From Octopus vulgaris (lineage: Eukaryota), in contig OX597820.1 in the NCBI GenBank assembly GCA_951406725.2, positions 26,722,001 to 26,786,000 on the forward strand: DNA of 64,000 bases, read 5' to 3'. Positions 2,313 to 41,040 of the stretch are shown piece by piece. The notes beneath the pieces were generated by a model. The model did not search any database. It worked only from the letters and a program-made list of their open reading frames with translations, and was not told the origin of the DNA. How positions within the stretch are numbered: the first letter of the stretch is position 1; each line of letters starts with the position of its first letter. A program made the position numbers and the translations under genes.

Positions 2313-2347
<35 letters not shown>

Positions 2348-2378
2348 AACGAGAAAGAAGCAACAAGAATGGATTGGT

Positions 2379-2468
2379 TTTTAGTACAATTGCTTCATAC
2401 AAAGACAGGCTTTATTACAAGTTGCAAAAATTGCAGCAGATAAAAGTGTCCGTACTCATCAGCTAAAA
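2379..2468 (-). ncRNA. Inverted hammerhead copy with GAAA>GAAG core change
   Basis: Reverse complement of 2617-2707 except for a substitution at 2393 and a 1-nt deletion in stem II. Confidence 0.6.
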
Positions 2469-2616
2469 TACATTTGAGTTCTCTAGACATCTTAGTGGGT
2501 GAGGTTATACTCATGAGATATTGGAGATAGTTCCATTAGAGGCCTCTAATGGAACTATCTCCAATATCTCATGAGTATAACCTCACCCACTAAGATGTCT
2601 AGAGAACTCAAATGTA

Positions 2617-2707
2617 TTTTAGCTGATGAGTACGGGACACTTTTATCTGCTGCAATTTTTGCAACTTGTAATAAAGCCTGTCTTTGTATGAAACAATTGT
2701 ACTAAAA
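2617..2707 (+). ncRNA. Type I hammerhead ribozyme (Penelope-like-element type)
   Basis: Stem I TTTTAG (2617-2622) / CTAAAA (2702-2707); core CTGATGA 2623-2629; extended stem II (GTACGGGACA/TGTCTTTGTAT, CTTTTAT/ATAAAG, TGCAA/TTGCA); GAAA 2690-2693; stem III AC-AATT-GT with palindromic loop; GTA cleavage triplet 2699-2701. Confidence 0.8.
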
Positions 2708-2853
2708 ACCAATCCATTCTTGTTGCTTCTTTCTCGTTTATAATCACCCCACATTACTGTATGGATAACACCATATAGTTTTTCTGGTGCATCTAAGTTA
2801 AGTACCACATTCAAGTAAATTCATTGGAAGTTACTTGAATCTTAATTGCTTTG

Positions 2854-2914
<61 letters not shown>

Positions 2915-3149
2915 TATATATACATTATATATATATATACATTATATATATACAGGGTAGTCCAAAAGTAGGTTTACAGTTATCCCGTAGGCATTTTAAA
3001 TTTCTTTTAAAACATTTTATTTCATGTTTAACGGCATTTCTCCATGTCCGCTATATGCAGAGTTCAAATGTGACTGGGGTTGATTTTGCCTTTCATTCTT
3101 TCGGGGTTGATAAAATAAAGTACCGAGTTTGATGTAATTCATATTGGTT

Positions 3150-3935
3150 CCAAATTTTGGTACAAGGCCAACAATTTCGACGGAGGTGTAACTCGATTAC
3201 ATCACCCCCTCTCCCAGTGCTCATCTGGTACTTATTTCATCGACACCGCAAGGATGAAAGGCAAATTCAGCGGAATTTGAATTCAAAACATGAAGTCAAA
3301 CGAAATACCTATTTCTTTACTACCCACAAGGGACTAAACACAGAGAGGACAAACAAGGACAGACAAACGGATTAAGTCGATTATATCGACCCCAGTGCGT
3401 AATTGGTACTTATTTAATCGACACCAAAAGGATGAAAGGCAAAGTCGACCTCGGCGGAATTTGAACTCAGAACGTAACGGCAAACGAAATACGGCTACGC
3501 ATTTCGCCCGGTGTGCTAACGATTCTGCCAGCTCATCGCCTTAAAGTTAAAGTGGACCTCGGCGAAATTTGAACTCAGAACGTAAAGCCAAACGGAAATA
3601 CCTATTTCTTTACTACCCACAAAGGGCTAAACACAGAGAGGACAAACAAGGACAGACAAACGGATTAAGTCGATTACATCGACCCCAGTGCGTACCTGGT
3701 ACTTAATTTATCGACCCCAAAAGGATGAAAGGCAAAGTCGACCTCGGCGGATTTGAACTCAGTACGTAACGGCAGACGAAATACGGCTACGCATTTCGCC
3801 CGGCGTGCTAACGATTCTGCCAGCTCGTCGCCTTAAAGTTAAAGTGGACCTCGGCGGAATTTGAACTCAGAACGTAAAGCCAGACGGAAATACCGCTAAG
3901 CATTTTGTCCGGCGTGCTAACGATTCTTCCAGCTC
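3150..3935 (-). mobile_element. SINE family A cluster with ~293-bp tandem duplication
   Basis: Two full copies (~3310-3543 and ~3603-3835) interleaved with partial copies. Confidence 0.85.
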
Positions 3936-4150
3936 ACTGACTTCATATTGCAATTGAAATTAATACAAACCACACTAAAGAATAAGACAAACGAAACTGT
4001 AAAAACAATAAAGAATGAAAAAAAAAAGCAAAAAACAATGAGACAAAGAAGGCTTGAGAGCTGGACATATGCTTGGTTCTTATCTGTACTCATGTCATTC
4101 TTATATTTCATATTTTGTTGTTATTCTGCCACTGATCAAACACTCACACA

Positions 4151-4827: not shown

Positions 4828-4947
4828 ATGTCTAACCTGACATTCGTATTTTGCTTGTCTTTTATGGTTGTATCTGTGGCATGCCAAAGATGTGACTTGC
4901 CTCGAAGTCTCTGGTGTTCTTCTCCTGAAATCGCAAAGAAATGTAAT
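4828..4947 (+). CDS. IFI30: GILT/IFI30-like thiol reductase, coding exon 1 (signal peptide + SapA-like motif)
   Basis: ATG at 4828; translates MSNLTFVFCLSFMVVSVACQRCDLPRSLWCSSPEIAKKCN, a hydrophobic leader followed by CxxPxxxWCxxxxxAxxC as in the N-terminal SapA-like region of non-mammalian GILTs. Donor GTAAGT at 4948; joins exon 2 in frame. Confidence 0.88.
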
Positions 4948-5972
4948 GTAAGTAGAACAACTAATGTCTTGTGTTTATAAAGCGTTTTTTCATGTTTATA
5001 ATTTTCAGATCAGTTCAGAAAAGTTAGAGTCTCGTACAAAATGTTTTTTGATGTTTCGATTGCACTCTTTACATTGTAAGGGCGAGTTCAATACCCGCTG
5101 AGGTCAACATTGCCCTTCCTTTCCCTTCGGGTTCGATAAAAGTAAATACCTGTCAAGTACTTGGGTAGATATAATCATCTAAATCTACCCCCTCCACGTC
5201 TACCAAAATTTGAAACTATGAGACAGTGAGCAGGCAGAATCATTAGCGCGTCGGACAAACCGCTCAGCAGTATTTCTTCTGACTAATTACGTTTTGAGTT
5301 CAAATCCCGTGAAGGTCAACTATGCCTTTTATCCTTTCAGAGTCGATAAAATAAAGTACCAATGAAGTACTGACGTAGATGTAATCGACTAATCCCGTCC
5401 CCAACCCAGAAAATTGAATTTGTGCCAAAATTTGAAACCATATAAGGCAGTGAGAAGGCAGAATTGTTAGAGCGTCGCAAAAAGTATTTAGCGGTATTTT
5501 TTTTAATGTTTTGTTCTGAGTTCAGATTCCATCTAGGTCAACTTTGCCTTTCTTCCTTTTGGAATCGATAAAAACCAGATACAGTTAAGTAGTATGATCG
5601 ACGTCATCAACTTGATCTCTCCCCTCAGAATTGCTGGCCATGTGCCAAAATTATAAAGAATCATCATCATCATCATCATGGATTAGTAGAATTGTCTGAA
5701 CAGACTTGTTCGGGGTCCAAGCGCTTCTGACTTGTGGAGTTGTCAAACTCTTGTTGCGTATAGGACGGATTTGGCTGTCGATTGAATCTACCGTAAAAAC
5801 TGTTCGTCATCTTCCTTGGACAAGGAAAGACAGGCAGTTTTCTTCTGCCTTGTGTTCAAAAGGGCTAAAATTTGAGAATTCATAAAGATATCTTAAGAGA
5901 TAAGGGAATCGTTAGAGCATTTGGAAAATGTTTTGTAGTATATTTTTCTGGTTCTTTATATTCTTTATGCCT

Positions 5973-6146
5973 TTAACCCTCCAACGCGGAGTATAGGGCA
6001 CTTATAGTTGAATTCCATGTCGCATAATTTTTCGCTTCTGTACTTATACTCTGCCATGAATGTCCACCTTTTTCAAGTTCCTTTTGTGTTGATCTCCGCC
6101 ACGAGTTCTTAGGCCTACCTCTCCTTCTATATCCATCCGGTTTCCA
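5973..6146 (-). mobile_element. RTE-clade LINE 3' fragment
   Basis: WKPDGYRRRGRPKNSWRRSTQKELEKGGHSWQSISTEAKNYATWNSTISALYSALEG*, carrying the W.P.G.R.RGRP..W C-terminal motif; flanked by repeated GGTTCTTTA. Confidence 0.7.
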
Positions 6147-6611
6147 GTATGTAAAGAATCGAAGGTTCTTTACATACTGCGTTCAAATCCTTTTGAGGTT
6201 GAATTTGTCAACCACGCCGATATAGAGGAAGAAAATACATTACTCTAAGACCAACTTGTTTCGAGATACAGTATTTCTAAAGTTATTTGCAACTATGTCG
6301 GCACTTAGTAGCTTGGAAATATTAAACAGCTGGTGATGAATACTGATGTGACCTCTGTGGACAATTTGCTACACGCTAAAGTCGACATAAATGAATTACA
6401 AACGAAGAAAGAAAAACTCGGAAAAGAGGATCCGACGACAACGAAATAAAGATGAAAATACATCAACACAAAACCAAGTTGTTTCGAAATATCTTTGCAT
6501 TTCCTATCAGTTATTTGTTGGCAATTTTGAAGCTTGAAAATATTAAATTATGAAAGAAAATACCTTCCCATGAGTCCAACTTATTTTGAGATATCATATA
6601 TGCAAGCAATT

Positions 6612-7398
6612 CGGTGAGCTGGCAGAAACGTTAGCACGCCACGCGAAATGCTTTGCGGTATTTCGTCTGCAGCTACGCTCTGAGTTCAAATTCCGCTGAG
6701 GTCGACTTTGCGTTTCATCCTTTCGGGGTCGATAAATTAAGTACCAGTTACGCACTGGGGTCGATATAATCGACTTAATACCTATGTCTGTCCTTGTTTG
6801 TCCCCTCTGTGTTTAGCCCCTTGTGAGTAATAAAGAAATAGGTATTTCGTCTGCAGCTACGCTCTGAGTTCAGATTCCGCCGAGGTCGACTTTGCCTTTC
6901 ATCCTTTCGGGGTCGATTAAATAAGTACCAGTAACGCACTGGAGTCGATATAATCGACTTAATCCGTTTGTCTGTCCTTGATTGTCCTCTCTGTGTTTAT
7001 CCCCTTCTGGGTAGTAAAAAAATAGGTATTTCGTCTGCCGTTACGTTCTGAGTTCAAATTCCGCCGAGGTTGACTTTGCCTTTCATCCTTTCGGGGTCGA
7101 TTAAATAAGTACCAGTAACGCACTGGAGTCGATATAATCGACTTAATCCGTTTGTCTGTCCTTGTTTGTCCTGTTTGTGTTTAGCCCCTTGTGGGTAGTA
7201 AAGAAATAGAAATAGGTATTTCGTCTGCCGTTACGTTCTGAGTTCAAATTCCGCCGAGGTTGACTTTGCCTTTCATCCTTTTGGGGTCGATAAATTAAGT
7301 ACCAGTTACACACTGGGGTCGATGCAATCGACTGAATCCGCATGTCTGTCCTTTCTTGTCCCCTCATGTATAGCCCCTTGTGGGCAATAAAGAAATAA
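6612..7398 (+). mobile_element. Head-to-tail tetramer of SINE family A
   Basis: One head (GGTGAGCTGGCAGAAACGTTAGCACG), then ~184-190-bp units starting GGTATTTCGTCTG at 6657, 6841, 7025 and 7215, each with a B-box-like GAGTTCAAATTCC. Confidence 0.88.
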
Positions 7399-9694
7399 GT
7401 TATATGTTGCAATGCCGGCAGTTGCAAATTTGAAAATATTTAATTGTCAGAGAGGAAAATACATTAGCATAAGACCAACTTGTTTCAAGATGTTATTTAC
7501 GGTAATGTTGCCAGTAAGATACATGAAGACAGTAAACAGTTACGGAAGAAAATGCATTTAATATATTACCGACTCGTTTCGAGCTATATTTCCAAAAAGT
7601 TATTTGTAGCAATGTCGACAGTGATATGCTTGACAATATTAAACTATCGAAGAAGAATATACGTTGCTATAAGACTAACTTGTTTCGCGATATCGTATTT
7701 CCATCCAACTACCCATATTCTCGTAAGATTTAAATAATTGACGAAGAAACGTACAAGTAGAATGAATGTATGTATATGTATAGTAATTATTACTAGTCCT
7801 GTCAGCTGATGTAATCTCGGAAATATTAACTCAATAACAATAGGATTTACAGATAGACTGTTTACATCGAGATGGTATTAGGATTGCTTCTGACAGGTGT
7901 GAGCTTGAAGGGGTTAAATCGATATTGGCCAAAATCGATACTGATTACATCCGACAAGCGAGACAGAATTTTGTTGATAACGTGGTAATAACATATATAA
8001 AATACTTCATATTGGCCAAATACTCTTCGTCACCACCAGTTCCCTATACCCACGCCATTGCGCCTATTCTCATCAATTCTTCGGCTATATCATACTATCA
8101 ACTAACTGATCTTCTACTAAAATAGCAACACGAATTTTTAAGCGAACGTTGCTTTTTTTGTGTGTTAATCTTAATATCGATTTTTTTCTAGCCTACTCTC
8201 ATACTACATTTCATTTTATTTTTAATTAAAGCGAGGGCGTTAAGGCAGTGAGTCAGTAGAATCGCTAGAACGACAGAAAAAATACTTAGCGGATTTTCTT
8301 CCTACTTTACGTTCTGAGTTCAGTCCCGCCGAGATCGACTTTGCCTTTCATCATTTTTCGGGGTCGATAAAGTAAGAACTGCTCAAGCACTGAGGTTGAT
8401 ATAAACGACTGCTCTCCCCACCCACCACAATAAAATATTTCGGGACTTTCTACTAGAGAAATAGATACTAATTCTATGGTAAAAAGAAATAAATTAAAAC
8501 GGGAAGTTGGCAGAATCATTAGAGCATGGAAAACTGCTTTCCGGTATCTGTCCTGGCTCTTTACGTTCCGAGTTCAACTCCTGTCGCGTTTAACTTTGTT
8601 TTTCAATATGACAAAGTACCAGTCAAGTACTGAGGTCAGTGGTGTCCACTATTCTCCTGACCTCAACACTGCCGGCCTTGTACCTAAATAAAAAAACACT
8701 TTTAATTAAAGCGATGGAGGCCGTGTGCTGAACGCAGAGTCAAAACTAACAACGTACAAATCGAGTCTATAGCTTAGTTTCAACCCTTCACCTATGACAG
8801 CCCTGTTTCTACATCACAAAATCTCATTCGTATCTCCAAAAAAAAAAAAAAAAGATATGAATTTGCACACACGTAATAATTATTATATCATTCAACTACT
8901 ACCGTGGTTAAATAATATTCTTAAGGTCGCAATTTACTTACACACAGCATCTTCAGAGCTTTGTCGCGAATTCAGTTCTAACCAAATTAGAAAGCGTTAG
9001 CATTTTTGAAGAAGACTGGTCCCTAGCTACATTTTGGCATAAAAAATTGAGATTTGGGCCAGTAGAAACATGTTTACATCAAAATTTGTAGCAACGTTAT
9101 AGGAGAGTAAGTAACAACTCCAATTAAGTATAGATCTAAATAACTTTTTTTATTTTAAAAGTAAAATATATTTATTTTAGCTTGAATGATAGAAGAAAGC
9201 ATGAAGAATTTCATATATTTTGTCCCAGCAACAAAAATTTGTATAAAATAAAGTTGTGAGGTAAAATATCATGAAAAAAAATATAAGGCAATAAATTGGA
9301 TTTAAGTATAATTAACTTTTTATTTTAAAAACAAATTATATTTTAATTCGAGGAATTTCATGGTATCAATCTCATGCAATGAAGTTTTAAAAGAAAAAAA
9401 GTGATTAGTGTTTGTTTCTCAAATTTGAGGGTGGTTATATAGTTGTATACTCTTTTATGAATATAGTTCTAAGGGGACTTTTAATATACGTCACCGGCAT
9501 CATTGAGGTAAAAAAAATTATCAATGACACCGCTAATTTACAATTAGTTTAATTACATTATCTGAGTTAAAAATTAAAATATTACTTAGAAATTTATTAA
9601 ATTTATTATTCAATTTTGAATAAGATAAAATCTTAAATTATTAATTGACACATTATTAATTAGCATAATAGCATAGCCTGTAAAAAAAACATGG

Positions 9695-11158
9695 ATTACA
9701 TGGAAAAATGCGAGCAAGAGAAATAATATTCTTAAGATTATAAACCTGGAAAAGTACAGGACATGTTATCAAACCTGGAAAAGTTCAGGACAAGTTATTA
9801 CGTCTGGTAAAGTACAGAACAAGAAAATTTTTACTTAAAATGTTGCAGCTAACGATAAAATTTGAATATTAAAAATTACTTTGTTTTAATTTACAAAGTA
9901 ACATTATAATTAAAAAAGTACCATCGGATCTTTTCGGTTTGAACGGCAGTTTGTAACATAATTTCTAGGTAACTAAAAAATTTTAAACTTCGTATACTGG
10001 TAGAATGTGTTTATAAAACATCATTTTCTCTTGGCTTTATTGAGAAAATTCTGTAGTTTGTAACATATTTCGTCTTTAATTTCTTGCATTTCGGCAATTT
10101 TAACCAATCAATTACCTCCGTTGACGTAAACAACATTCTGTGCCGCATGAATATGTCCCTCCTTTAAGAAACAGATTGGGTTTATTTACATTTGTGAAGA
10201 AAAAAAGATACCCTTCCCCCACCTCTAACCCTAACCCTAACTAACCCTAACCCTAAATCTAAAATAGATTGAAATGCAATAGATCGATACTAGGGTTATA
10301 ATTATGGGTGACAATTTCATATGACACCGCTAGAGAAAATGGAAGTTTTTTCTCAGAATGTTGTTTACGTCAATGGAGGTAATTGATTGGTTAAAATTGC
10401 CGAAATGCAAGAAATTAAAGACGAAATATGTTACAAACTATAGAATTTTCTCAATAAAGCCAAGAGAAAATGATGTTTTATAAACACATTCTACCAGTAT
10501 ACGAAGTTTAAAATTTTTTAGTTACCTAGAAATTATGTTACAAACTGCTGTTCAAACCGAAAAGATTCGTACCATCATTTTGTTAAAATATTGACTCACT
10601 AAAATGCTTACAAAACGAGAGCCAGAATTACGAATATTGTATATGGTAGGCAAATTCATTATGTAGAAAATAGGTATTGGGTCAAGACTAAAAATGAGAA
10701 AACTTGGCCACAACTTAGGCAATAACTCAAGCAAATTTTACTGTGAATTCGTTGTTATAGGTAGATTTTACTGTAACATATAACTAATTTTTATATTATT
10801 CTATTTATTGTACTATGTATTAATATTACCTTTTATAACCTGTTTTCAAATTTCTAATTATTAACAATTGAAAAAATGAATTTTTTTCAAGTGCAACAAA
10901 TATTTTGAGTTATTTCTATCAGAAGTAACAAATAATAACAAATTGAAGTAATAACTTGTAATAAAATTTTTAGTTTTAATAAAAACTGATATTTTCTAAA
11001 TCCAAATATTTTATTTGAAATGTTATCCTTACTTGCAATATTTTAAGTTAAATATTTTTTGGTTCTGTACTTTACCGGATGTAATAATTTGTCCTGTACT
11101 TTTCCAGGTTTATAATCTTAAGAATATTATTTCTCTTGCTCACATTTTTCCATGTAAT
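9695..11158. mobile_element. Older inverted-repeat element hosting the MITE
   Basis: ATTACATGGAAAAATG.GAGCAAGAGAAATAATATTCTTAAGATTATAAACCTGGAAAAGTACAGGACA... at 9695-9848 is the reverse complement of ~11031-11158; AT-rich interior; termini and TSD not resolved. Confidence 0.6.
9926..10568. mobile_element. Merlin-like MITE, long-TIR variant
   Basis: Ends GGATCTTTTCGGTTTG / CAAACCGAAAAGATTC; 8-bp TSD GTACCATC at 9918-9925 and 10569-10576; 215-bp inverted arms; internal (CCCTAA)-like repeats. The superfamily call rests only on the GG termini and 8-bp TSD. Confidence 0.8.
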
Positions 11159-12585
11159 ATAGTTATGCTTAAATCGATAGAAGCTCTGTGTGTGTGTGTA
11201 TATATACAGTTGTTTACTTTAAATAATAATAGATAAAAAAAACACTCGCGCACACATGTGCATATATTGATTTCTTATACAGGAGCAAGGTCACACATAT
11301 GACCGGGCGATATTATTATGTTTACTGTATGCATCTATATGTATGTGTGTGGAGGCACATGGCCTAGTGGTTAGAGCAGCGGACTCGCAATCGCGGGTTC
11401 GAATCTCAGATCGGGTGATGTGTGTGTTTATGAGCGAAACACCTAAGCTGCACCCGGCTCCGGCAGAAGGTAACGGCGAACTTCTACTGACTCTTTCGCC
11501 ACAACTTTCTCTCACTCTTTCCTCCTGCATCTTGCAGCTCACCTGCGACGGACCGGTGGGGAACCTATACGCCAAGGAAACCGGGAAACCGGCCCTTATG
11601 AGCCAAGCATGGCTCGAGAAGGAACAAACCATAATGCGTATGGCCAAGACGATGCTGTTATTGCCAGTAAATGTACGTGACTTAGTGGATGGATATTCGT
11701 AAGGTCGTGAGTTCGATTTCCTGCGACGCGTTGTGTCCTTGAGCATGACACTTTATTTCACGTTGCTCCAGTCCACCCAGTTAGCAAAAATGAGTAGCGC
11801 CTGTAGTTTAAGGGCCCAGCCTTGTCATGTTCTGTGTCAAGCTTAATCTCCCTGAGAAATACGTTAAGGGTACACGTGCATTTGGAAAGCTCAGTCACTT
11901 GCACGTTAATTTCACGAGCTGGCTGTTCCGTTGATTGGATCAACTGGAATCCTCGTCGTCGTAACCGACGGATTGCCAGTTGGGAAAGTGGAAAAACGTA
12001 GTGGTGGTGATGGTGGAAGTAGTAGTAAATAATGCACAGTAGTAAATAATTCCTTAAAATACGGAAAGTAGACATCTGTATTTCGTAATCAAAGTATTTT
12101 ATCTTGAGTCTAGACAGCTGTCCTTCATTCCTTTTAGATAAGCAACCGTAGATAAAACGAGTGCGTGAGGACAATGAGTGAAATATGTGTTGTTATTATT
12201 GAGGTAGAGCCATGCACTAATATCATTAACGGCTGTAGCGTAGACAGCTGGTGACAGAAGTGTTTTATCATTAAAGTCTTCCATACATTAGTATGGTAGG
12301 CTTTAATGATAAGATTTAAATTCGAAGTAAATATTATTTTAGATATAACCCCCTAAATATACAATGCTCCGAAGGCTTGACTTTTATTACCATTTATAAG
12401 AATTGAGTCTTTGGATTATAAAAATGTCATATCTCTATATAGAAAAACGTGTTCAAACATCGAGTCCCGTTCTGCCTGTCTTTAGGCCTTCGAGCATTTG
12501 GTTTCCATAGCAGCAAGCGGTATAGATACCCCCCAATTAAAAACCTCTGTTCTAATGTAATGTAATAGTTATTGTTGTTCGTTAA

Positions 12586-12816
12586 GGCGGCGAGCTGGCA
12601 GAAACGTTAGCACGCTGGGCGAAATGTTTAGCGGCATTTCGTCTGTCTTTACGTTCTGAGTTGAAATTCCGCTGTGGTCGACTTTGCCTCTCGTCCTTTC
12701 GGGGTCGATAAATAAAGTACCAGTTACGCACTGGGGTCGATATAATCGACTTAATCCTTTTGTCTGTCCTTGTTTGTCCTCTCTGTGTTTAGCCCCTTGC
12801 GGGCAATAAAGAAATA
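12586..12816 (+). mobile_element. SINE family A, representative full-length monomer
   Basis: GGCGGCGAGCTGGCAGAAACGTTAGC head, GCCTYTCRTCCTTTCGGGGTCGATAAA core, AAAGAAATA tail. Related copies at about 5060-5660, 8240-8690, 13434-13866, 22070-22290, 33925-34137, 34455-34685, 35890-36112, 36418-36790, 41222-41640, 44835-45025, 51190-51424 and 56680-56880. Confidence 0.88.
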
Positions 12817-14002
12817 AGTTAATCGTTGTTCGTACATAATTCTTTCCCTAAATTTATTTAACTTCTGGAGAGTGTAAAAGAATTTTTCTCTTTAACCAGA
12901 TAACAACATTGTCAATGAGAATTATCAACTGCCTTAATGTACCGATTTTGAAGGATTTACCGATAAAATATTGCTGTAATGTCTTTACATATATTACGAT
13001 TAGATTAGAACGTATTACTTATATATAAGGTTGGCTTGGCTGTGTGATAAATAACTACGTGATTCTAGAATGGATTCCACGGCACGGAACTTGGGCAGGT
13101 AACTCTAACTATAGTCTTGGGCTGACCTGTATCTGTGAGTGGTGAAATGTGTATGTATGCTTGCGTGCGTGTATGTGCATATGTGTATATGTGTGTGTTT
13201 GTGTATGTGTATGTATCTGCGCGCGAGTGTGTGCATGTGTGCGCGTGCACGTTTGTTTTCTGTTTACGCCGCTCTAAAAAACGTTTTCGTCCTTTATGTT
13301 CAGCGCTTTCATGTCCCGTAACCTAGCAGTTTAAATAACAGAATTCAATAAAAAATATATAAAAACAAACTGAACTTAGACACTTCCCTCAAAATTTCCG
13401 GCCTTGTGCCTAAATCAGAAATCATTATTATTAAGGCGGCGAGCTGGCAGAACTGTGAGCTGTCGGACAAAAGGCTTAGCGGCATTTCTTCCGGTTCTTT
13501 ACATTCTGAGTTCAAATCCCATCGAGGTCAACTTCAACTTTCATCATTTCGAGGGTCCATAAAATAAATACCAGTCATGTACTCGGGATGATGTAATAGA
13601 CTTAACTCTCCACCCTGTCCAAGAAAATGATGTACCTGTGTCAAAATTTGAAACAATTATTGGTCTCAGATTTTGGTACGAAACCAGAAATTTCGAGAAA
13701 GGAGTAAATCAATTACATCAACTCTAGTACTCAACAGGTATTTACTTTATCCTGCCAGAAAAAAGGATGTAAGGCAAAGTAGACTTCGGCGGAATTTGAA
13801 CTCAGAACGTGAAGACGCTAAGCATTTTGCTCGGCGCGCTTAACGATTCTGCCAGCTCGCCACCTTATTACTTAGTAACGATGTAGTGTGAGCAAAGGTG
13901 ATATATCATACATTTCAAATTTACATTCAAAGAAAACAGACAGGTTAACTATTTATGATATTCTAATCTTTTCCATCAGTTTTTATTGTATTTTATACAT
14001 AC

Positions 14003-14099
<97 letters not shown>

Positions 14100-14205
14100 T
14101 GTATATCAAATACAAAATGAGACAACAAAACATCCAGATAGACGATACAAAGAAAACAAGCACGGGTCATTCGAAGTTTTCTTTCCAGCGGCGTACGTAC
14201 ACTTT

Positions 14206-14308
<103 letters not shown>

Positions 14309-14629
14309 AATACCAAAGTAAAAGGAAAACATTAGGTATAAATAATCTCAACCGATCGACATAACAGACAGCAATGATAAAAATCAAAAACAACTTGTCA
14401 GATGATTTTTTTCTTTTTTCAATAGTTGTTTTGAAATCTTAATTATTTCAGAGATGTCCTGTTGTGTTTAACAGTTCCTTTCCGCAGACTTCAGTTCGAA
14501 AAAGAGAAACTAATTAAATAAAGAGAACATCTTTTACCAGATGTGTCGAAAACCGCTTTTTATTTCAGTTTCTGGTCTCTATATTCTCACTTTGTTTTCT
14601 TTCCATTTTTGTTTTATTTCCTATCTACC

Positions 14630-14632
14630 ATC

Positions 14633-14694
<62 letters not shown>

Positions 14695-14758
14695 TTCCTT
14701 TTTTCTTTCTTTCTTTATCTCCTTCTTTCTTTCTTCCTTTCTTCTTTCTTTCTCTCCT

Positions 14759-14811
<53 letters not shown>

Positions 14812-15007
14812 TTTCCTTCTTTCTTTCCTTCTTTCCTTTTCTTTCTTGCTTTTTTCTTTCTTTCTCTCCTTCATTCTTTCTTTCTTTCTTTCTTTCCTTC
14901 TTTCCTTCCTTCTTTCTTTCTTTCTTTTTTTGCCTTCTTTCTTTCTTTCTTTTTGTCTTTTTTTGCCTTCTTTCTATCTTTCTTTCTTTCTTTTCTTCTT
15001 TCTTTTC

Positions 15008-15038
<31 letters not shown>

Positions 15039-15040
15039 TC
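14630..15040. repeat. (CTTT)n polypyrimidine tract
   Basis: ~400 bp of almost pure C/T in GILT intron 1, about 300 bp upstream of exon 2. Confidence 0.95.
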
Positions 15041-15336
15041 TTCATTTTTGGCTATTAATTAATTAAAAACTTTACTAATTTATATTTTATATTTACTTTC
15101 CTTGTCTGCTTGTCTGCCTCTCTATCTGCTTGCTTGTCTGTCTATCTGTCTGTCTATCTGTGTGCTTCTCTCACTGTCTTATCTGTCTGTCACTCCTTCC
15201 TCCTCTCTCTCTCACTCTGTCCTATCAGTCTATCCTTAAATTATGTCTGCTAATTTATATACTTAACTAAACAACAAATTAAATTGCAGTCTACATAAAT
15301 ATTTAACTATATGTAAAACTATTCATCTAATTCCAG

Positions 15337-15519
15337 GTGAGTGATCTTTGCAAACCTTACCTGTCACCCGCCACTGAAGAGAGTAAGGTTAAAGTGTCTG
15401 TTTACTATGAATCGAGATGTCCTTTCAGCATCAAGTTTTTATTAGAACAAGTAATGAAAGCCTTCGCAAAAGTAGGCGATATTATGTCCGTTGATTTGGT
15501 ACCATTCGGAAATTCTCAC
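15337..15519 (+). CDS. IFI30: GILT/IFI30-like, exon 2 (active site YYESRCPFS, CXXS)
   Basis: Acceptor TTCCAG ends at 15336; VSDLCKPYLSPATEESKVKVSVYYESRCPFSIKFLLEQVMKAFAKVGDIMSVDLVPFGNSH matches the GILT motifs V.V.VYYESxCPx(C/S) and LVP(F/Y)GN. Donor GTAAGT at 15520. Confidence 0.95.
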
Positions 15520-15554
15520 GTAAGTCATAAAAATTCTTTCTGTCAGTAATAATA

Positions 15555-15622
<68 letters not shown>

Positions 15623-15880
15623 GACGTGGCTGTGTCGTAATCATTAGCAACATTGTCATCACATCCGCCGCCCTCATCGTCATTTAACGATGTCAGTTGG
15701 AGAAGACCTCATAATTTCTTCCCCATAGATCACGGTTCTGCATTACCACATCACACACAGCCTCGTATATTACCTCCCGAATCTTTGACGATGACATCTG
15801 CAGAGAAGTATTTGTGACTTTTGCTACCTGCTAGCCACTGTATCCAGAGGGAAAATAATAATACTATTTTTGCTCTAGAT

Positions 15881-16198
15881 TAGTGCTCCTTAACAGGGGT
15901 CCATGTGGCCCCATATAAGATTTTTAGGGCTTTTCGCAACAAAATAGTAAATTTGAAGAGCCCCTGGAAAAAATTTGATTTAGCTGTATGTATTGGTATG
16001 AATATCAAAAACAGGTAGGCTTCGTTCTCTGATATTTTACATAGTTCAACTTATACAAATTAATGTGTGAAAAGCAAAGTAAGGATTTGAAAGAAGCATC
16101 TATAAAGCTAGTTTTTAAACATCGAATGCTATGGGGGTCCACCGGAATAAAATAGTAATCAAAGGGGTTCATAGACAGAAGAATGGTTGAGAATGCTG
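15881..16198. mobile_element. hAT (Charlie-like) MITE
   Basis: 8-bp TSD CTCTAGAT at 15873-15880 and 16199-16206 (NTCTAGAN preference); degenerate TIRs TAGTGCTCCTTAAC / GTTGAGAATGCTG; subterminal GGGGTCCA motifs. Confidence 0.7.
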
Positions 16199-16211
16199 CT
16201 CTAGATAATAC

Positions 16212-16639
16212 AACCTTGTTTCTATTTTCCCGATCGTCAGCGTATCCCGATATGACATGATGTAGTATTATATAGACTGATACAGTTTGGGATTTGTATT
16301 TGGTTGCTCTGACATTATTTAGTGCAATCAGAGAAATCTAATGGTGCCTGTCTCTCTTCTCCAAATACAGTTACCTGTTGGCTTGGTTGTGAAAGGTTCT
16401 TCTGTCCTTTTGACAACATCTATAAAACCTTGTGTCCATTTTCCCGATCGTCAGCGTATCCCGATATGACACGGTATGGTATTATGTAGACTGATACAAC
16501 ATGGAATTTATATTTGGTTACTCTGACATTATTTAGTATAATCAGAAAAATCTAATGGCGCCTGTCTCTCCTCTCCAAATACAGTTACCTGTTGGCTTGG
16601 TTGTGAAAGGTCCTTCTGCCCTTTTGACAACATCTATAA
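16212..16639 (+). repeat. ~214-bp tandem duplication in GILT intron 2
   Basis: Units start AACCTTGT at 16212 and 16426 and share TTTTCCCGATCGTCAGCGTATCCCGATATGACA and CAAATACAGTTACCTGTTGGCTTGGTTGTGAAAGG. Confidence 0.9.
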
Positions 16640-16848
16640 AAGTAAATGTTGCCGGATGTCGACAGAACCACATCACGAGGTGAATTAGGTTACAGGATGA
16701 AGGTGAGATGGATGGCTTGCCGAATGACCCGACCATGAAATATGGATTGCGTGTTATAAGTAGCAGGTAGAATATGTCAAGATCACTATAAGAGATTATT
16801 ATTATTCAACAGCTAATTGTTTATTTTGCTTTTTATTTTCTTATACAG

Positions 16849-16923
16849 GTACGAAAAATCGGCGATAAAGTTCTGTTCACTTGCCAACATGGACGAATAG
16901 AATGTGCGGCTAATATAGTTGAG
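16849..16923 (+). CDS. IFI30: GILT/IFI30-like, exon 3 (signature CQHGxxECxxN)
   Basis: Pyrimidine tract + TACAG acceptor; VRKIGDKVLFTCQHGRIECAANIVE; donor GTAAGT at 16924. Confidence 0.95.
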
Positions 16924-17336
16924 GTAAGTTATTAAAATCAATCAATTCTTCGAAAAAATAAGTGAGCACTGGTTATGTACATAAAGCATAGAAGACTCCG
17001 GTTCCTTACTATGTGGTTTTGAATTCGGTCCCACTGCGAGACAACAAGAGCAAATGTAGCTTCGTGCTAACCAATACCGTGCCAGCGAAATTTGATGAAG
17101 GGACTATTCCATTGTTGCATTTGGGTGAGGTAGACTTAAGGATAACTCTGGAGATAGTGGTCTTCTCTAACGGGTGCTGCTTAACCTCTTTTCAATTCGA
17201 CATTAAAAATTGAAACAATCCAGCCGAATGGTGCCCCTTATGTGTTTGTGTTGATTTTTCTAGAATCTTAGCTTAAACAACTAAGTGTTGCTGTTTGCGT
17301 TGAGTCACGGCTGTTGACGTTCTGAATTCATATCCG

Positions 17337-17771
17337 GGATCTTTTCGGTTTGAGTGGCAGTTTTTCTAGCGGTGTCATATGAAATTGTCACCCATAATTA
17401 TGACCCTAGTATCATCGATCTATTGCATTTCAATCTGTTTTAAGGTTAGGGTTAGTTAGGGTTAGGGTTAGGGGTGGGGGGAAGGGTATCTTTTTTCTTC
17501 AGAAATGTAAATAAACCAAATCTGTTTCTTAAACGAGGGACATATTCATACGACACAAAATATTTTCACCTCAATAGACGTCATTGATTGGTTGAAATTG
17601 CAGAAATTGAAGAAAAAACGACAGCAAATATCTTACAAACTATAGAATTTTCTCAATAAAGCCAAGAGAAAAAGATGTTTTATAAACACATTCTACCATT
17701 ATGCGAAGTTTAAAAGTGTTTAGTTACGTGGAAAGAATTTTTAAAAACTGCCGTTCAAACCGAAAAGATCC
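17337..17771. mobile_element. Merlin-like MITE, standard form of the same family
   Basis: ~28-bp TIRs GGATCTTTTCGGTTTGA..GGCAGTTTT; 8-bp TSD CATATCCG at 17329-17336 and 17772-17779; internal TTAGGG-like repeats; opposite orientation to the 9926 copy. Confidence 0.82.
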
Positions 17772-18253
17772 CATATCCGGATGTAATCAATTTTGCTTTT
17801 CAACTTTCAGGGATCGACTAAATAAAGCACGAAACAAGTTTGGAAGACGATTTAATCGACTAAACTCTTGTGAAGCTGCATTGCCTAATGGTTAGGCTGT
17901 TGCATTAACGATCGCTAGATCGTTGGTTCGATTTCCTGATTGGATGTAGCATTGTGTTCTTGAGCAAAACACTCCATTTCACGTTGTTTCACCCCCTTGC
18001 GATCAGGGGTGAATGTTGGCCTGCTCGTCTAGCACAAATTAGTATGGATTCTCTTGATTGTAATTAACAACACATTTTAGTTTATAGTTTTCTGGGTGCC
18101 GGTTACTTCAGAGTTTCGGTTATATGAGTACCGGATAAGAGGGCGTTTACTCTATATTGTTTTGTTTTTTGTTTTTGAGAGTTCAAATTACTGTTTGCTT
18201 TAACACCTTATCTGAAGACTCATTCGTACCTGTTTTATATCTAATTATAATAG

Positions 18254-18358
18254 ACATGCGCAGTACGACTTTTACCCGTTGAACAACATTTACCATTGAT
18301 CGCCTGCATTTCCAGTCAATTCATGCACGGAGTTAAACCAACATCTGCTTACAAATTA
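18254..18358 (+). CDS. IFI30: GILT/IFI30-like, exon 4
   Basis: TAG acceptor; TCAVRLLPVEQHLPLIACISSQFMHGVKPTSAYKL completes the signature (ECxxNxxxxC) and supplies another conserved Cys; donor GTAAGT at 18359. Confidence 0.9.
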
Positions 18359-18829
18359 GTAAGTTTCATACTAAATTTATACTTTTTGTTATATTCACTA
18401 TACAGAGTTTTGCTATAGTGTGTGTGTGTGTGTGTTCCCTCTTGTTTTAATTATTTGAAGCCTTCCCAGAGGAAGGGGATACTTTCTAACCAAGACACTA
18501 AGCCCTGTCGTTGGAATGTAAATAAAAACAAATTCACATTTTAAACTCGAGAAAAGTCTTATGTATGTATGTATGTATGTATGTATGTATGTATGTATGT
18601 ATGTATGTATGTATGTATGTATGCATGTATGTATGTATGCATGTATGTATGTATGTATGTATGTATGTATGTATGTATGTATGTATGTATGTATGTATGT
18701 ATGTATGTATGTATGCATGCAAGCGTTTGTGTGTGCATGTATGTATATATGTGTGTGTGAAATGTGAAAGAGGTGGTATCCATAATCTTCATAGATTAAA
18801 GAAGAACAGTAACAACTTGATGAGATGAA

Positions 18830-19420
18830 TGCGGTTAATCTTCAAAAATGTGGGGTTTACACCGAACAAATGGAAAAACAAAAGCAATGAGATAACAAGG
18901 GATACAAAAATAGAATTCAGAAAAATGAATAAATAAAGAAATAGAATCCGCAATACGGGGCAGTACAGGGTAATTCGGAAACGCTCCCCCAACTCCCTCA
19001 CACAAAATGTCCCAGAATACTTTGCCGTCTGCAAAGTACGTCGGAAGTGTCTTATTCCATTTTTTCTTCTACTTAGAAAGCATACTCTGAATAGGCATAT
19101 TCAGCCTCTCCAGTCTTGCCAGCCTCATCCACCTATCGATAAACACGATTTGTCTTGAAATATTACCTGAAGAAATTGATGAGAATTAGTCTTCAAGCCT
19201 TTCAGACGGGTCCTCTATGCAGCCTCTTTCACCGCAATCACTATGTAGGGCAAAATCCGCCTTTCTTCTTTGGCAAAGGAAGATGGTGCGGCGATCTTCA
19301 CTAAACACATCGTGGACAGCCAGATTCGTTTTACACGACACAAGTTCACAATGATATCTAGGATCAATGAAATAAAGCTCTATCGCAAAAAGTTTACATA
19401 ACGACAAAGGTAAAGAGTAA
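18830..19420 (-). mobile_element. Possible Tx1/L1-like LINE 3' remnant
   Basis: Broken minus-strand frames IVIAVKEAA*RTRLKGLKTN and VFIDRWMRLARL resemble Tx1-type ORF2 C-termini; heavily decayed. Confidence 0.4.
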
Positions 19421-19914
19421 CATGCCGAATTTTAAACAAGTCTTGCATACTTTTATTGTTTAGTTTATTAATGGTGTTTGCGAAGTGCATGTTAGCTGGC
19501 CAGTTATTTTTTTACCTGAAAACTCCAGCTTTTCAAGGAGTGGCTGTGTGGTAAGTAGCTTGCTTACCGACCACATGGCTCCGGGTTCAGTCCCACTGCG
19601 TGCCACCTTGGGTAAGTGTCTTCTACTATATCCTCGGGCCGACCAAAGCCTTGTGAGTGGATTTGGTAGACGGAAACTGAAAGAAGCCCGTCGTATATAT
19701 ATATAATATCAAAGGGTAATCAGAAATATTTGAAATTTCTATTACCAGTGGCCTAGCGTGTAAAAATTTAGTCAATAGAATATATATTATTCCTATTTCG
19801 AAATTTTATCCCTTATAGTGGTTCGGAATTTAATTGTCCTCTCTAGCGTGCAAGTAGTCCTATGATGGATGCCTCTTATGTGTTTAAATGTATACTGTGT
19901 TTATATATATATAT

Positions 19915-20581
19915 GAAAGAATACAAAAAAATGGGACAAGAACGCAACAGGCGACAAAACATCTAGACAGATGATACAAAATAAAACAAGATAAACAAGA
20001 ACGAGTCATTCGGACTTTTCTTTCCTTAGTCGAGTTCCAGATCATCTTTGCGGTTTCGGCTGGTTATACTCGAGACTGCTCCAATCTAGCCAGCCCCAAG
20101 GAAAATCTAAGCTAAGAGCACTAGATTCCTTGGAAGAAAGCAGCGAATGTATACGAAAACAAGGACGAAAAAACAAAACAAAACGGAGAAATGGTACACA
20201 AATACAAGTGCAAACAACAGGACATTAACAACAGATGTCTTTCGACTAAGGACGAATTAAATTAAGCTGGTGTGTGTGGAAGTGAAGCCTTACGGCAGGA
20301 ACATAAGAGATGACATGCATGGGAAGGATTATAGATGTTGCACGAATGGTAGTCGAACCAAAAAGAAAGGTCAGGCTTGGCAGAACACCGGTCACGGGCA
20401 GAGGGATAGAAGAATTAGGGAGGGACGAGAAAGAAAAAAAGAAAAGGGAAAGAGTGAAGTGAAAGAGAAAGAAAGGCAAAGAAATGTGAGAGAAGGGGAG
20501 CGAAAGATAGAAGAGTGGATGTTCCACGTCCTGCGTTGCTGTGTTTTTTTCTCTTTTTTTTCTGTGTTTTCTTGTTTGGAT

Positions 20582-20585
<4 letters not shown>
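19915..20585. repeat. (TA)n-flanked interspersed repeat family
   Basis: ~420 bp homologous to 25310-25740, with a short copy at ~14110-14190; all abut (TA)n-rich sequence. Confidence 0.75.
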
Positions 20586-20649
<64 letters not shown>

Positions 20650-20846
20650 TGCATGTGTGTGTGTGTGTGTGTGTGTGTGCGTGCAATGACAAAATTTTAA
20701 GCTTGAAAATATGTTATGATATAGAACTTCACCGACTACGTTTTTAGCAATTTTTTGTGGAGATCAATGCTTCTCTTTCTCTCTTTCTTTCTTCTCCCCC
20801 CTCTCTCTCACATACACACACTACATTCATTTTTTAAATTTTTTAG

Positions 20847-20993
20847 TGTGCTGCCAAACAACAGATTGATATGCAACCAATTCTTGCCTGCTCTCAAAGC
20901 GATCAAGGTGTTAATTTTCAGAAAGAAATGGCAACAAGAACTAATAGTTTGAAGCCACGTAAAACTTACGTTCCTTGGATTGTATTAAACGGC
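20847..20993 (+). CDS. IFI30: GILT/IFI30-like, exon 5
   Basis: TTTTAG acceptor; CAAKQQIDMQPILACSQSDQGVNFQKEMATRTNSLKPRKTYVPWIVLNG contains the GILT L.P...YVPWIxxNG motif; donor GTAAGT at 20994. Confidence 0.95.
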
Positions 20994-21662
20994 GTAAGTA
21001 AAAAAAATTCGACTGATTTAATATTTATGTCCATTCACGTAGTTGTAAAGCCGAGGATTAAGAATATTGGAAAAGGACTGGACAAAAATTCCTTACTTAT
21101 TTATTTCAGGGCCAACGCAGTCATTTATAAGATATACAAACATATATGCATACTTACTTATATGCATCAAACTTACGTGATAAGGTGATAAATGATAACG
21201 GGTAAATATCAGATTAAAAACCTTTGGGTGGAAAAAGTTGAAGGTTGCCCCTGGGACTCAAACCTGGCTTTCGAACTTTTCCGTTCTTAAGGCACAAATG
21301 AACCCGTGCATACATACACATGATATCAATAGATGTGGTTAATTCTAACAGTAAATGGACTCAATCAAGGTGTAGGATATATGCTTAGTTATAAGCTGTC
21401 TTACATACATATACGTGTACTTACGAGCTGTCTTACATATACGTGAACACACATACATGCATACATAACTACATGCATGCATACATACATACATACATAC
21501 AGATACCAGGCGAGTTGAATGCCCGATGGAATATCTTATGTGTTCGTCTGGGCTCTTTGCTTATTGACTTGAATTCCACTGAGGTCACCGTAACCTATTT
21601 ATCCTTCAAGATCGACAAATAAATTACCAGTCCAACACTAGGTTTACTATTACTACTACTAT

Positions 21663-24638: not shown

Positions 24639-25769
24639 ACGCTTTGATAGATAGGTAGATAAATAGTTAGATGCAACCAACAAATAAATGTTTCGTTGAA
24701 ATAATGAAAAGTGTCACGCATCAAAATAGCTTTTCAGTTATTCCAGTACATAAATCTGTCCTGAATGTCTAGATTAATAAAACGATAGCTGTCAAGTATG
24801 AACGTAGGAAGTGATACCTACCAAGTATGAATGAATATTTGTATTTCGGACCTAACAACGGAATGATACTACATAAAATATAGATTATGTAAATTATCTT
24901 CGAGAATGTGAGCTTTTGGAAATGTACGCTTTAGGTTCGGTTGTTGCTATTGTACTTAATAAACATTATACTTTTGAAGACGAGTTCATACAAGAGTTTT
25001 GTCTGTATTATTAATTAGGAAGAATTCAGAGTTTAAAAGCTGTGAAATAATTTTATATATATAGGGAAATAGGAAGATAAAGTATATAATGGCTATGTAA
25101 TATGATATGGTATAGTATAATATAATATAATATAATATCAAAGAATATAATATAATATTAATATGGGATAAATGATTACTTTGAAAAGTCAATTTTAGAT
25201 AGCAAAGACAAAAGAAAGTGAAGAGAAACCAGTTTTGGTGCATGTATATCATATGTATGTATATCATATATATATATAAGTGTAAGTACGTCGCTATATT
25301 TTATATATAAAAAAATACAAAAATGGGACAAGAACGCAAAACATCCAGACAGTTAGGTGAAACAAAAAATGGACAACAAAATATCAAGACTGACGATACA
25401 AGGAAACCAAAGACGGATCGTTCGGAGTTTTCTATCCTCAGTCGAGTTCCAGATTATCTTTGCAATTTCGGCTGGTTATACTCGAGATTGCTCCAATCTG
25501 GCCAGCCCCAAGGAAAAAGTAAGCCCAGAGCATTACATTCCTTGGAAGAAAGCAGCGAATGTATACGAAAACAAGGACGAAAAAAACCCCAGAAATGTTA
25601 CACAAATACAAATCGCAGGACATAACAACAGGTGTCTTTCGACTAAGGACGAATTAAATTAAGCTGACGTGTGTGGAAGTATAGCCTTACAGTAGGGACA
25701 TAAGATTTAACTAGCACAGGAAGGAATATAGATGTTGCAACATCTATATTCCATACAACACCAGAGATA

Positions 25770-26605
25770 CCATAAGAGATATGGAAACATGGGTGTCCTG
25801 TCATACATGTTAAACTCCATGAGCTCCTCGTCGCATGCTGGGAACAGGGCAAGCTGCCACAAGATCTCTGCAATTCTGTCATCATAACACTATACAAAAA
25901 CAAAGGGAAAAAGGGGGATCACCCTGCTTTCCACTGCAGGAAACGTTCTATCAAGATTACACCTCAACAGACTTGTTCCGTCCATTGCCGAAATTCATCT
26001 TCTAGAAAGCCAATGTGGTTTCAGAGCCAACAGGAGCAAAACAGATATAGTTTTCGTTCTCAGGCAGCTCCAAGACAAGTGCCGGAAGCAAAACAAACCA
26101 CTTAATGTAACATTTGTCGATCTGATGAAAGTGTTCGAGACAGTGATCAGAAAAGGTCTGTGGCAGATCCTAAGCCGACTTGGCTGTACCATCAAATTTC
26201 TAACCATGATCATCCAGCTTCACGAAGTCCAGCAAGGACAAGCCTGTCTGAATAGCGATATATCAGCCATTCCCCATCAACAACGGCGTGCAGCAGAGCT
26301 GTGTCCTTGCACCAACTCTCTTCAGCATGGTGCTCATGCAGGCCACTGCAGTCCTCGACGCTGAAGACGGCGTCTACATCAGGTAGTGTCTGGAAGGCAG
26401 CCTTTTCAATCTCCGGCGCCTACTGACCCACACCAAGACTTAAGAGCAATTGGTCCAGGACCTCCTCTTTGCAGATGATGCTACACTTGTCGCACACACA
26501 GAAAGAGCCCTGCAGCGCATCACATCCTGCTTTACAGAGGCCGTCCAGCTCATAGTGCTGGAAGTAAGCTTGAAAAAGCCTCAAGTCCTACACCAACCAG
26601 CAGTC
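25770..26605 (+). pseudogene. RTE/BovB-like LINE reverse transcriptase fragment
   Basis: Frameshifted motifs CWEQGKLPQD, IITLYKNKG, ESQCGFRANRS, FVLRQLQDKC, FVDL.K.F, CVLAPTLF and LFADDATLVAH. Confidence 0.85.
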
Positions 26606-27362
26606 ACTCATGCATACCAGCCTCCCCCTCTCCACGCCACCAATGTCATCGAAGGGAATGGCAAAGGCTGATACAGCTTGGCATCAGTGACACTGCAACT
26701 CATTTCTACAGCTGAGTGAACTGGAGCAATGCGAAATAAAGTGTCTTGCTTAAGAAAACAACAGACAGCCTGCCCCAGGAATGCTGATGTAAATGACACT
26801 TTTACGTCATGCTGACATAGAGGTAGCTGATGACAATGCAGTAAAGAAACCTCTTGTCAAATGAGCAAATTAGTGGCAAAAGAGGAGTGCTGCAGTTTAT
26901 CTCTTTGTTTCAAAATGTCAGTGTATGTGTACCACATACACTGACATTTTGGATTTCAACCAACACGTGAAGTTGATGAACAATAAGAGCACAAGAACTT
27001 CCCTTTGTACTCACCAATTTCTTAGTTGGTTGGCATGTATACTCATGGATGAGCTTGTTCGATTGGCCCTCATGGCATTGAGCAAGTTGCCCAGAATATG
27101 GAGAATTTGCAAGCTCAAATCTCCACCACTTGAAGCATAAAACCCATTTCTGTTAAGTTCTTTCAGTAATGGAGTCTTCTCTGCACACAGTGCAAATATC
27201 TTGCACTGATTCTCGGAGTGGTTGGCGTTAGGAAAGGCATCCAGCTGTAGAAACTCTGCCAGATCAGATTGGAGTCTGGTGCAGCCATCTGGTTCGCCAG
27301 ACCTCAGTCAAATCGTCCAACCCATGCTAGCATGGAAAGTGGACGTTAAATGATGATGATGA

Positions 27363-30870: not shown

Positions 30871-31130
30871 CATGGGATCAACAAACTTAAATTTTCCAAA
30901 TGAATAATAACCTTGAATTAATTCTGTCAACGTCACACTATATTCGTCTAAGAAAAGCTATTTATCTTTTTGTTTGTTGTAATAGTTAAGTTTAATAAAT
31001 TATAGCACATACATTTTTAGTTTTCCCGAACTTATATTTAGTTATCTTGTACTATATATAAGCCAAAGTCTATGCGATGTTTGCTTCATTTATAGACTGA
31101 AATACTTGAGATCGTACACCAGAAGTTTAT

Positions 31131-32660: not shown

Positions 32661-32917
32661 CTATGTTTGCCAGAGAAACTCTTTGGCCTCGCCGAGGACA
32701 AAGCAACCTCATTAGTACTGGTGCAATAACAAAATACTCCAAGTACACTCAATCAGTCATGCAGCTGGCGTTAGGAGGGAAGTCCAGCCATAGAAAGCAC
32801 GTTAAAAGTGGAATTTCTCCTGGGAAAGGACAGGGGATAATGACTAGTACGGGGCCTGAAGGGGTTAAATATAAGGGTTGAAATTTATCACTTGTTTTCG
32901 CTATTTACATATGAAAC

Positions 32918-40557: not shown

Positions 40558-41040
40558 GTTTGGAACCCCTATCTTGCTCAGAACATTGACCTCCTGGAAT
40601 CTGTTCAGAGACGTGCAACCAAACGCATACCCTCCATCAGACACCTACCATATTCTGAGCGCCTTGTTTCCCTGGACATGGATTCACTGAAGCTCCGGCG
40701 TCTGGCGACGGACTTGGTAAACGCCCACAAAGTTGTCAACCACCTCACCAATAACAACACTGAACACCTTTTTGATCTCCATGTGTCTAACACACGTGGA
40801 CATGCCTACAAAGTCAGAAAACAACACAGCTCCCATGACTTTCGGAAACATTTCTTCACACTCAGAGTTGCTGAAGCATGGAATAAACTGCCTGCGTCAG
40901 TTGTTGACTGCCATGACACTGCATCCTTTAAGGCCCTCATGCTTTCCGAAATCCGTCGAAACTACACCTGATTATATATACACTTTCGATGAGTTGTAGT
41001 GCACCTGAGCACTGTACACAATGTTTATTATTATTATTTT
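40558..41040 (+). mobile_element. 5'-truncated CR1-like LINE 3' end with intact frame
   Basis: VWNPYLAQNIDLLESVQRRATKRIP...YSERL...TRGHAYK...RKHFFTLRVAEAWNKLP...* (stop at 40971), short 3' UTR and (TTA)n tail; begins directly after a (CATA)n tract. Confidence 0.88.

Follow-up and report, generated by a model that had tools for sequence, protein, structure and literature searches.

A probable young, heavily 5'-truncated Penelope-like insertion with a mirror-image arm in a (TA)n tract of Octopus vulgaris

Inspection of a 64-kb window of the Octopus vulgaris genome (64,000 nucleotides, the whole stretch that was analysed) revealed a long palindrome carrying hammerhead motifs on both strands within a (TA)n tract. 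It is likely a young, single, heavily 5'-truncated insertion of a Penelope-like element (PLE), with the mirror arm made during integration. It is likely that only the last 316 bases of the element were copied and that the inverted second copy of its last 200 bases came from the same event. The palindrome and the opposite-strand hammerheads are published features of PLEs and not a special design, and the insertion is likely a new member of a known PLE layout, not a new type of element. The features of the locus are as follows.

2306–2347, no strand: left (TA)n target tract, interrupted by TACA (sequence)
2344–2542, minus strand: inverted, tail-less copy of the element 3' end, its terminus being the short 3' end of the family (arm comparison and recurrent 2742/(TA)n junctions)
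2379–2468, minus strand: mirror hammerhead motif, A15.1>G at 2393, predicted to be impaired (arm comparison; effect of position 15.1 as described in PMC3088659)
2539–2546, no strand: head-to-head junction without a spacer, centred between 2542 and 2543 (palindrome search)
2543–2742, plus strand: direct 5'-truncated copy of the element 3' end, presumably pLTR-like (arm comparison, contigs)
2617–2707, plus strand: type I hammerhead motif with intact core and 60-nt helix II, predicted to cut after A2701 (sequence; none of 34 core-proximal positions variable)
2693–2700, plus strand: self-complementary helix III/loop 3, predicted to form an 8-bp intermolecular duplex at -6.4 kcal/mol (duplex prediction)
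2743–2858, plus strand: one-sided 116-nt tail between the two 3' ends of the family (contigs; fold compared with shuffles)
2756–2779, plus strand: tail hairpin 1 with an A/C-rich loop, a candidate RT-binding signal (fold prediction)
2796–2847, plus strand: tail hairpin 2 (fold prediction)
2859–2952, no strand: right (TA)n target tract (sequence)
4828–4947, plus strand: GILT, first coding exon, given as context (88% identity to Octopus bimaculoides GILT)

Self-comparison of the sequence showed a 399-base loop-less palindrome at 2344–2742. Apart from one substitution, which sets 2393 against 2693, and an additional G in the right-arm G run at 2634–2636, its left arm (2344–2542, 199 nt) and right arm (2543–2742, 200 nt) are reverse complements without a spacer. 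The arms of about 200 nt, the zero loop, the substitution at 2393 and the single indel given in the original prediction were thus all reproduced. The right arm runs on for 116 nt (2743–2858) that have no left-arm counterpart, (TA)n tracts flank the insertion on both sides, and TATA at 2344–2347 is common to the left tract and the end of the left arm. The insertion therefore shows one feature of EN+ Penelope-like elements, a 5'-truncated copy placed in inverted orientation against the 5' end. The window held one direct copy of the unit (2543–2858), no second full copy and no other long palindrome; the next perfect palindromes outside simple repeats had arms of 12–19 bp. Two perfect palindromes, 25723–25752 (15-bp arms, no loop) and 26911–26951 (19-bp arms, 3-nt loop), lie near a reverse transcriptase fragment.

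The unit was present in 20 of the 24 listed sequencing-run rows (9 studies, 4 organism labels), and no RNA run was listed among those carrying it. Contigs from four public runs (X1, X3, X5, and X6; 4 studies, 3 organism labels) were compared; X1, X3, and X6 are DNA-like and X5 may be RNA, X1 may be the source sample, and X3 and X6 carry other organism labels. Contigs matching 2543–2858 numbered 876, 755, 225, and 74 in the individual runs, with identities of 80%–100%, from under 90% to over 99%. An exit at 2742 into (TA)n was seen in at least 14 contigs of X3 and at least 9 of X6 (24 of 159 loose-end rows), neither run being the best match, and this recurrent exit coincides exactly with the end of the left arm. 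The unit thus belongs to a repeated family. A second, long 3' end, weaker than the one at 2742, lies near 2852–2858. Past 2852, at least two X5 contigs enter TA, and each of the four runs shows a drop in depth of about 4- to 8-fold in the last bin, part of which an edge effect could explain. Since both outer ends of the insertion are 3' ends of the family itself, 2743–2858 is an optional one-sided tail. Exact patterns of the unit gave no matches in metagenome, viral, and prokaryote collections, as expected for animal DNA.

Summed contig depth, which is not equated with copy number, climbed about 100-fold in X1 from 2543 to 2625; most copies may be very short or differ upstream. Loose ends with differing upstream sequence were found before 2556, 2569, and 2622, and one of them starts with TA repeats. 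Among the joints listed for the four runs there was neither a contig spanning the whole unit nor a strand-change joint at 2543, so the palindrome junction stands without independent read support.

The one-sided tail, left uninterpreted in the original prediction, is the most diagnostic part of the insertion. An optional tail at one end, or two alternative 3' ends, characterizes EN+ Penelope-like elements and was found here, with the long end less firmly than the short one; the same holds for dispersal as a repeat and for an AT-rich or microsatellite target, both also found. With about 110–116 nt the tail is longer than the 30–40 nt usually quoted for PLEs (PMC8557442). It folds into two hairpins, and its fold was better than that of any of 200 shuffles (z -3.69). 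In at least two X5 contigs hairpin 2 is shorter at 2809–2840, its base apparently being kept (loose end behind 2813), which could reflect either a conserved structure or a simple hairpin deletion. A bacterial sigma-70 scan of the tail is irrelevant to a eukaryote and served solely to reveal the tail hairpin.

All parts of the right-arm hammerhead that had been predicted (6-bp stem I, CUGAUGA, GAAA, 2-bp stem III, AAUU, and GUA) were located at their positions. Helix I is formed by six Watson-Crick pairs (2617–2622/2702–2707), CUGAUGA occupies 2623–2629, the helix II region 2630–2689 (60 nt), and GAAA 2690–2693; helix III consists of A2693-U2700 and C2694-G2699 closed by the loop AAUU, and the GUA site has its predicted cut after 2701. 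The minus-strand motif of the left arm, predicted to read GAAG instead of GAAA, does carry A15.1>G at 2393, and earlier hammerhead work found losses of at least 10-fold for changes at 15.1/16.1 (PMC3088659). The search with hammerhead models that had been proposed as a check gave a divided answer: our own descriptor found a single site in the window, with no matches in 100 shuffled windows or in 5,000 shuffled 316-nt units, but the Rfam hammerhead models gave no match to the palindrome unit at E ≤ 10. Because the 60-nt helix II was missed by these models, octopus hammerheads may be undercounted. A type I hammerhead that lies close to the 3' end and has a short, palindromic helix III is typical of EN+ Penelope-like elements; it was thus recognized here by its sequence motif, Rfam being silent. 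Rfam matches to miRNA precursors were below the gathering score, and any long hairpin gives such matches. Compared with shuffles, the isolated motif had no advantage in folding (z -0.34 and +0.25), helix II alone gave z -1.4, and the hammerhead fold (-11.7 kcal/mol) was 3.3 above the MFE. The 5' strand of helix I (2617–2622) ends in a T-run plus AG and resembles a 3' splice site; in Penelope of D. virilis an intron terminates at helix I, as described in PMC4209133.

Palindromic, dimer-type helix III has been described in metazoan PLE motifs (PMC4209133), and single motifs of this kind are reported to show little or no cleavage in vitro (PMC4209133, PMC11167929). The hammerhead is probably a passenger from the pLTR, and its activity in the master transcript probably depends on dimerization or on the assistance of a protein. 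At this locus the ribozyme is likely idle, given the predicted read-through duplex and the two motifs on opposite strands, which make a cis dimer impossible. The idea that a read-through transcript masks the ribozyme as dsRNA agreed with the predicted energies (-342.5 kcal/mol for the long duplex vs -11.7 for the hammerhead fold); the companion idea of a self-cleaving transcript is weakened by the opposite-strand motifs, the lack of a cis dimer, and the poor in vitro cleavage of single metazoan PLE motifs.

In the contigs of the four runs, 30 positions of the unit varied at ≥5%. None of the 34 core and core-proximal positions was among them (P 0.008–0.012, for a set chosen after seeing the table), and for the hammerhead core alone conservation was not significant (P 0.19–0.25). 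The common variant 2695 A>G preserves the palindromic pairing as G-U. Among 14 variants in predicted pairs, which are unphased, 7 keep and 7 break the pairing, so outer helix II and the tail hairpins are without covariation support; 2683 T>C was dropped as evidence for a helix, being bulged in the computed fold. Of the expected conservation of core and stems, the part concerning the core-proximal positions stood, while covariation in the stems did not emerge. The arms carry identical letters at 11 of 12 positions checked. At 2593, 2611, 2668, and 2711 they agree with each other although most X1, X3, and X6 depth has another letter, and this sharing of copy-specific letters indicates that both arms were copied from one template. 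The two differences between the arms were not among the listed common variants. From one substitution in 199 sites, with a rate from PMC13282606, the age of the arms was estimated at about 0.7 Myr (0.02–3.9), which would be an underestimate if the arms have undergone conversion.

The coding capacity of the unit is negligible. An open frame of 51 aa (2550–2702) had no Pfam family and no homolog, and it was ruled out as an ORF end because a stop directly precedes it at 2547–2549. EN+ Penelope-like elements encode a telomerase-like RT and a GIY-YIG endonuclease in an ORF flanked by pLTRs in direct tandem. No RT or GIY-YIG sequence linked to the unit was found in the unit and the short contigs, and membership in the PLEs is therefore drawn from the RNA motif and the layout.

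This layout is well represented among known elements. PLEs are described as typically having a 5'-truncated copy in inverted orientation next to their 5' end, a tail on one of the ends, and a preference for microsatellites, and heavy 5' truncation of autonomous PLEs occurs (PMC8557442). Head-to-head junctions with palindromes have been reported, self-priming being proposed (Arkhipova et al. 2013, PMC3846280), as have pairs of opposite-strand hammerhead motifs 100–700 bp apart (PMC4209133). In the supplement of Craig et al. 2021 (PMC8557442), (TA)n is the target of nearly all families of the Hydra clade. One of the families with this target, Penelope-13_HM, carries hammerheads on both strands and an inverted copy joined to it, as here, but its inverted part is 966 nt long vs 200 nt (PMC8557442). 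Hydra-clade PLEs also resemble the insertion in their canonical type I hammerhead, which lies close to the 3' end and has a palindromic helix III (PMC8557442). The distance from the cleavage site to the 3' end is 41 and 151–157 nt here; in 24 of 26 Hydra rows of the supplement (one antisense row and one 5' copy were dropped) it is 30–48 nt in 10 consensus sequences, 114–153 nt in 9, and elsewhere in 5 (PMC8557442). Helix II, predicted to be unusually long, is so indeed: its region spans 60 nt vs 10–24 nt in all 24 rows, and it is close to the helix II of about 53 nt of a spike-moss PLE (PMC8557442). Insertion into (TA)n and a canonical hammerhead near the 3' end, both found here, are not diagnostic of the Hydra clade, and distances were compared within that clade only; judged by layout, Hydra is the closest clade, as a lead and not as a placement. 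In its proteins this clade is marked by RWK, DKT, and a CxCX5C linker and by the absence of CCHH (PMC8557442).

Among octopus elements, the hammerhead listed for Hydra-1_Obim differs from that of the unit in all helices (PMC8557442). Five short exact probes of the unit had no matches in the wrapped FASTA lines of the Craig 2021 consensus supplement (PMC8557442). Within the reach of such probes on wrapped lines, identity was rejected with Hydra-1_Obim, whose hammerhead differs as well, and with Naiad_Ovul, whose consensus the supplement contains. Naiad_Ovul ("HHR_half_core") shares with the insertion the octopus host, the (TA)n target, and core halves lying far apart, although Naiads are described as lacking canonical hammerheads (PMC8557442). 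The suggestion of a possibly undescribed family thus stands as far as the octopus PLE consensus sequences compared are concerned. In O. vulgaris, 31 Penelope-like families have been active recently, with 336 near-full-length insertions covering 1.83 Mb (PMC13282606); the repeat library of the species includes 190 Penelope-like consensus sequences, and the family may already be in Repbase, Dfam, or this set of 190. A literature search on octopus hammerheads and ribozyme-bearing octopus retrotransposons found no paper devoted to such a family.

Penelope insertions of Adineta vaga share the head-to-head inverted pLTR, the junction palindrome, and the single-end tail (PMC3846280). They have ORFs, 8–10-bp TSDs, and a 31-bp tail, whereas here there is no ORF, the tail is 116 nt, and a TSD is unreadable in (TA)n; here, unlike there, the whole arm is a loop-less palindrome (PMC3846280). 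In PAc, a Poseidon element of Anolis, two 3' ends likewise bound a tail, the target is AT-rich, the hammerhead lies upstream, and an A/C-rich stem-loop is found near the ends (PMC11167929). The ORF of PAc begins inside the hammerhead, whereas the ATG frame starting there in the octopus unit closes after 21 codons; the mechanism is demonstrated for PAc and would apply to the unit by analogy (PMC11167929). Non-LTR retrozymes are similar in their type I hammerhead, low GC, noncoding nature, length of 150–450 bp, and relation to PLEs (PMC7229834; bioRxiv 10.64898/2026.07.22.740005). They form head-to-tail tandems giving circular RNA, in contrast to the head-to-head arrangement with one motif per strand seen here (PMC7229834), so that the retrozyme-like reading fits poorly. 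No head-to-tail tandem was found at the locus, and no go-back joint occurred among those listed in the four runs, which is weak evidence for other loci. Of the original prediction of a young, non-autonomous, TA-targeting PLE or retrozyme-like insertion, the PLE origin, the TA targeting, and probably the young age were retained and the retrozyme likeness was abandoned; non-autonomy was not retained, since a truncated autonomous PLE looks identical.

According to PMC11167929, the protein of PAc nicks and extends both target strands in vitro, reverse transcription starts at two sites bounding the tail, and the hammerhead is dispensable and cleaves only with the protein. By analogy, the element protein would nick both strands of the TA tract, and two cDNAs would be primed on one RNA or on sister RNAs, starting at 2742 and 2858. 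Both cDNAs would stop early and anneal at a short self-complementary stretch at about 2539–2546, and each could then prime copying of the other. The product would be a head-to-head palindrome that has no loop and bears the tail on a single arm. If two cDNAs share one sequence, their ends can pair with each other only where that sequence is self-complementary, and this would account for the loop-less centre that is seen. Within the PLE-insertion reading we lean slightly towards such twin priming. Fold-back of a single cDNA (Arkhipova 2013) is a less probable yet serious candidate: it would more often be expected to leave a short loop, and TATA at 2739–2742 could supply the stop at the short end. 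Other routes are quite unlikely.

An unlikely alternative to the truncated insertion is a dedicated short, non-autonomous, hammerhead-bearing mini-element that uses the protein of an autonomous PLE, that is, an ORF-less family with many stubs and palindromes in (TA)n. The concentration of depth at the hammerhead, the differing upstream loose ends before 2556, 2569, and 2622, and the ORF-less unit would agree with it, and non-autonomous pLTR-forming elements exist (PMC8557442; bioRxiv 10.64898/2026.07.22.740005). However, strong 5' truncation of autonomous PLEs yields the same profile (PMC8557442), the contigs are too short to reach any ORF, the tandem unit is absent at the locus, and the 31 recently active families of O. 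vulgaris (PMC13282606) also count against it. In its fullest form, which we likewise regard as improbable, an abundant ORF-less octopus mini-element would derive from a Hydra-type PLE end, carry the long-helix-II hammerhead and the 116-nt tail as an RT landing pad, and routinely integrate as loop-less 200–400-bp TA palindromes, seeding perfect dsRNA for A-to-I editing and small-RNA pathways. If a mini-element existed, the differing centres of its copies would also reveal, across the genome, the way in which the inverted ends of PLEs arise.

The copy-specific letters shared by the arms and the TATA microhomology at the left end would also suit an ordinary PLE stump that became a palindrome afterwards and apart from retrotransposition, when a break at the TA tract was repaired or the template was switched there. 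This is very unlikely, since the mirror arm stops at a recurrent 3' end of the family and PLEs of other animals repeatedly show this layout (PMC8557442, PMC3846280). We give the least credence to an assembly or fold-back read artefact. It would be in line with the missing contig-level joint at the centre and with the trouble that PLE inverted structures cause in short-read assemblies (PMC8557442), but the mirror ends at a natural end of the family, the flanks on the two sides are unlike, and the two inter-arm differences are absent from the listed common variants. The truncated PLE insertion with a mirror arm made during integration is therefore preferred.

The predicted position about 2 kb upstream of the immune gene GILT was confirmed by the exon at 4828–4947, whose ATG is 1,970 bp from 2858; a Pfam GILT match lies at 16849–16932. 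The gene extends over 4828–21020 on the plus strand with exons at 4828–4947, about 16849–16932, and about 20868–20996, and its N-terminal stretch is saposin A-like (Pfam SapA, E 0.011, below the cut-off). Several other repeats occur in the window. A short plus-strand open frame at 1474–1614, following a long (AAT/GAT)n tract, had no Pfam match; we take it to resemble the C-terminal end of a restriction-like-endonuclease LINE of the Dong/R4 type. A reverse transcriptase fragment was found at 25888–26364 on the plus strand (Pfam RVT_1, E 6e-8), and fragments at 31110–32729 and 40288–40971 are LINE-like by eye, two pieces scanned giving no significant Pfam match. A piece of the Pif1 2B domain at 60797–61114 on the plus strand (E 4.6e-5) is probably a Helitron remnant. 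A SINE-like repeat with partial tandems of about 292 bp occupies 3048–3943 and other places; one of its 20-mers has 24 occurrences in the window when ≤3 mismatches are allowed.

The architecture is already known and would not surprise a PLE specialist; its value is that of a clean test case. The formation of inverted ends and tails of PLEs is still debated in the literature (PMC8557442, PMC3846280), and a minimal insertion with both natural ends and a loop-less junction makes a sharp prediction for the master sequence at the centre.
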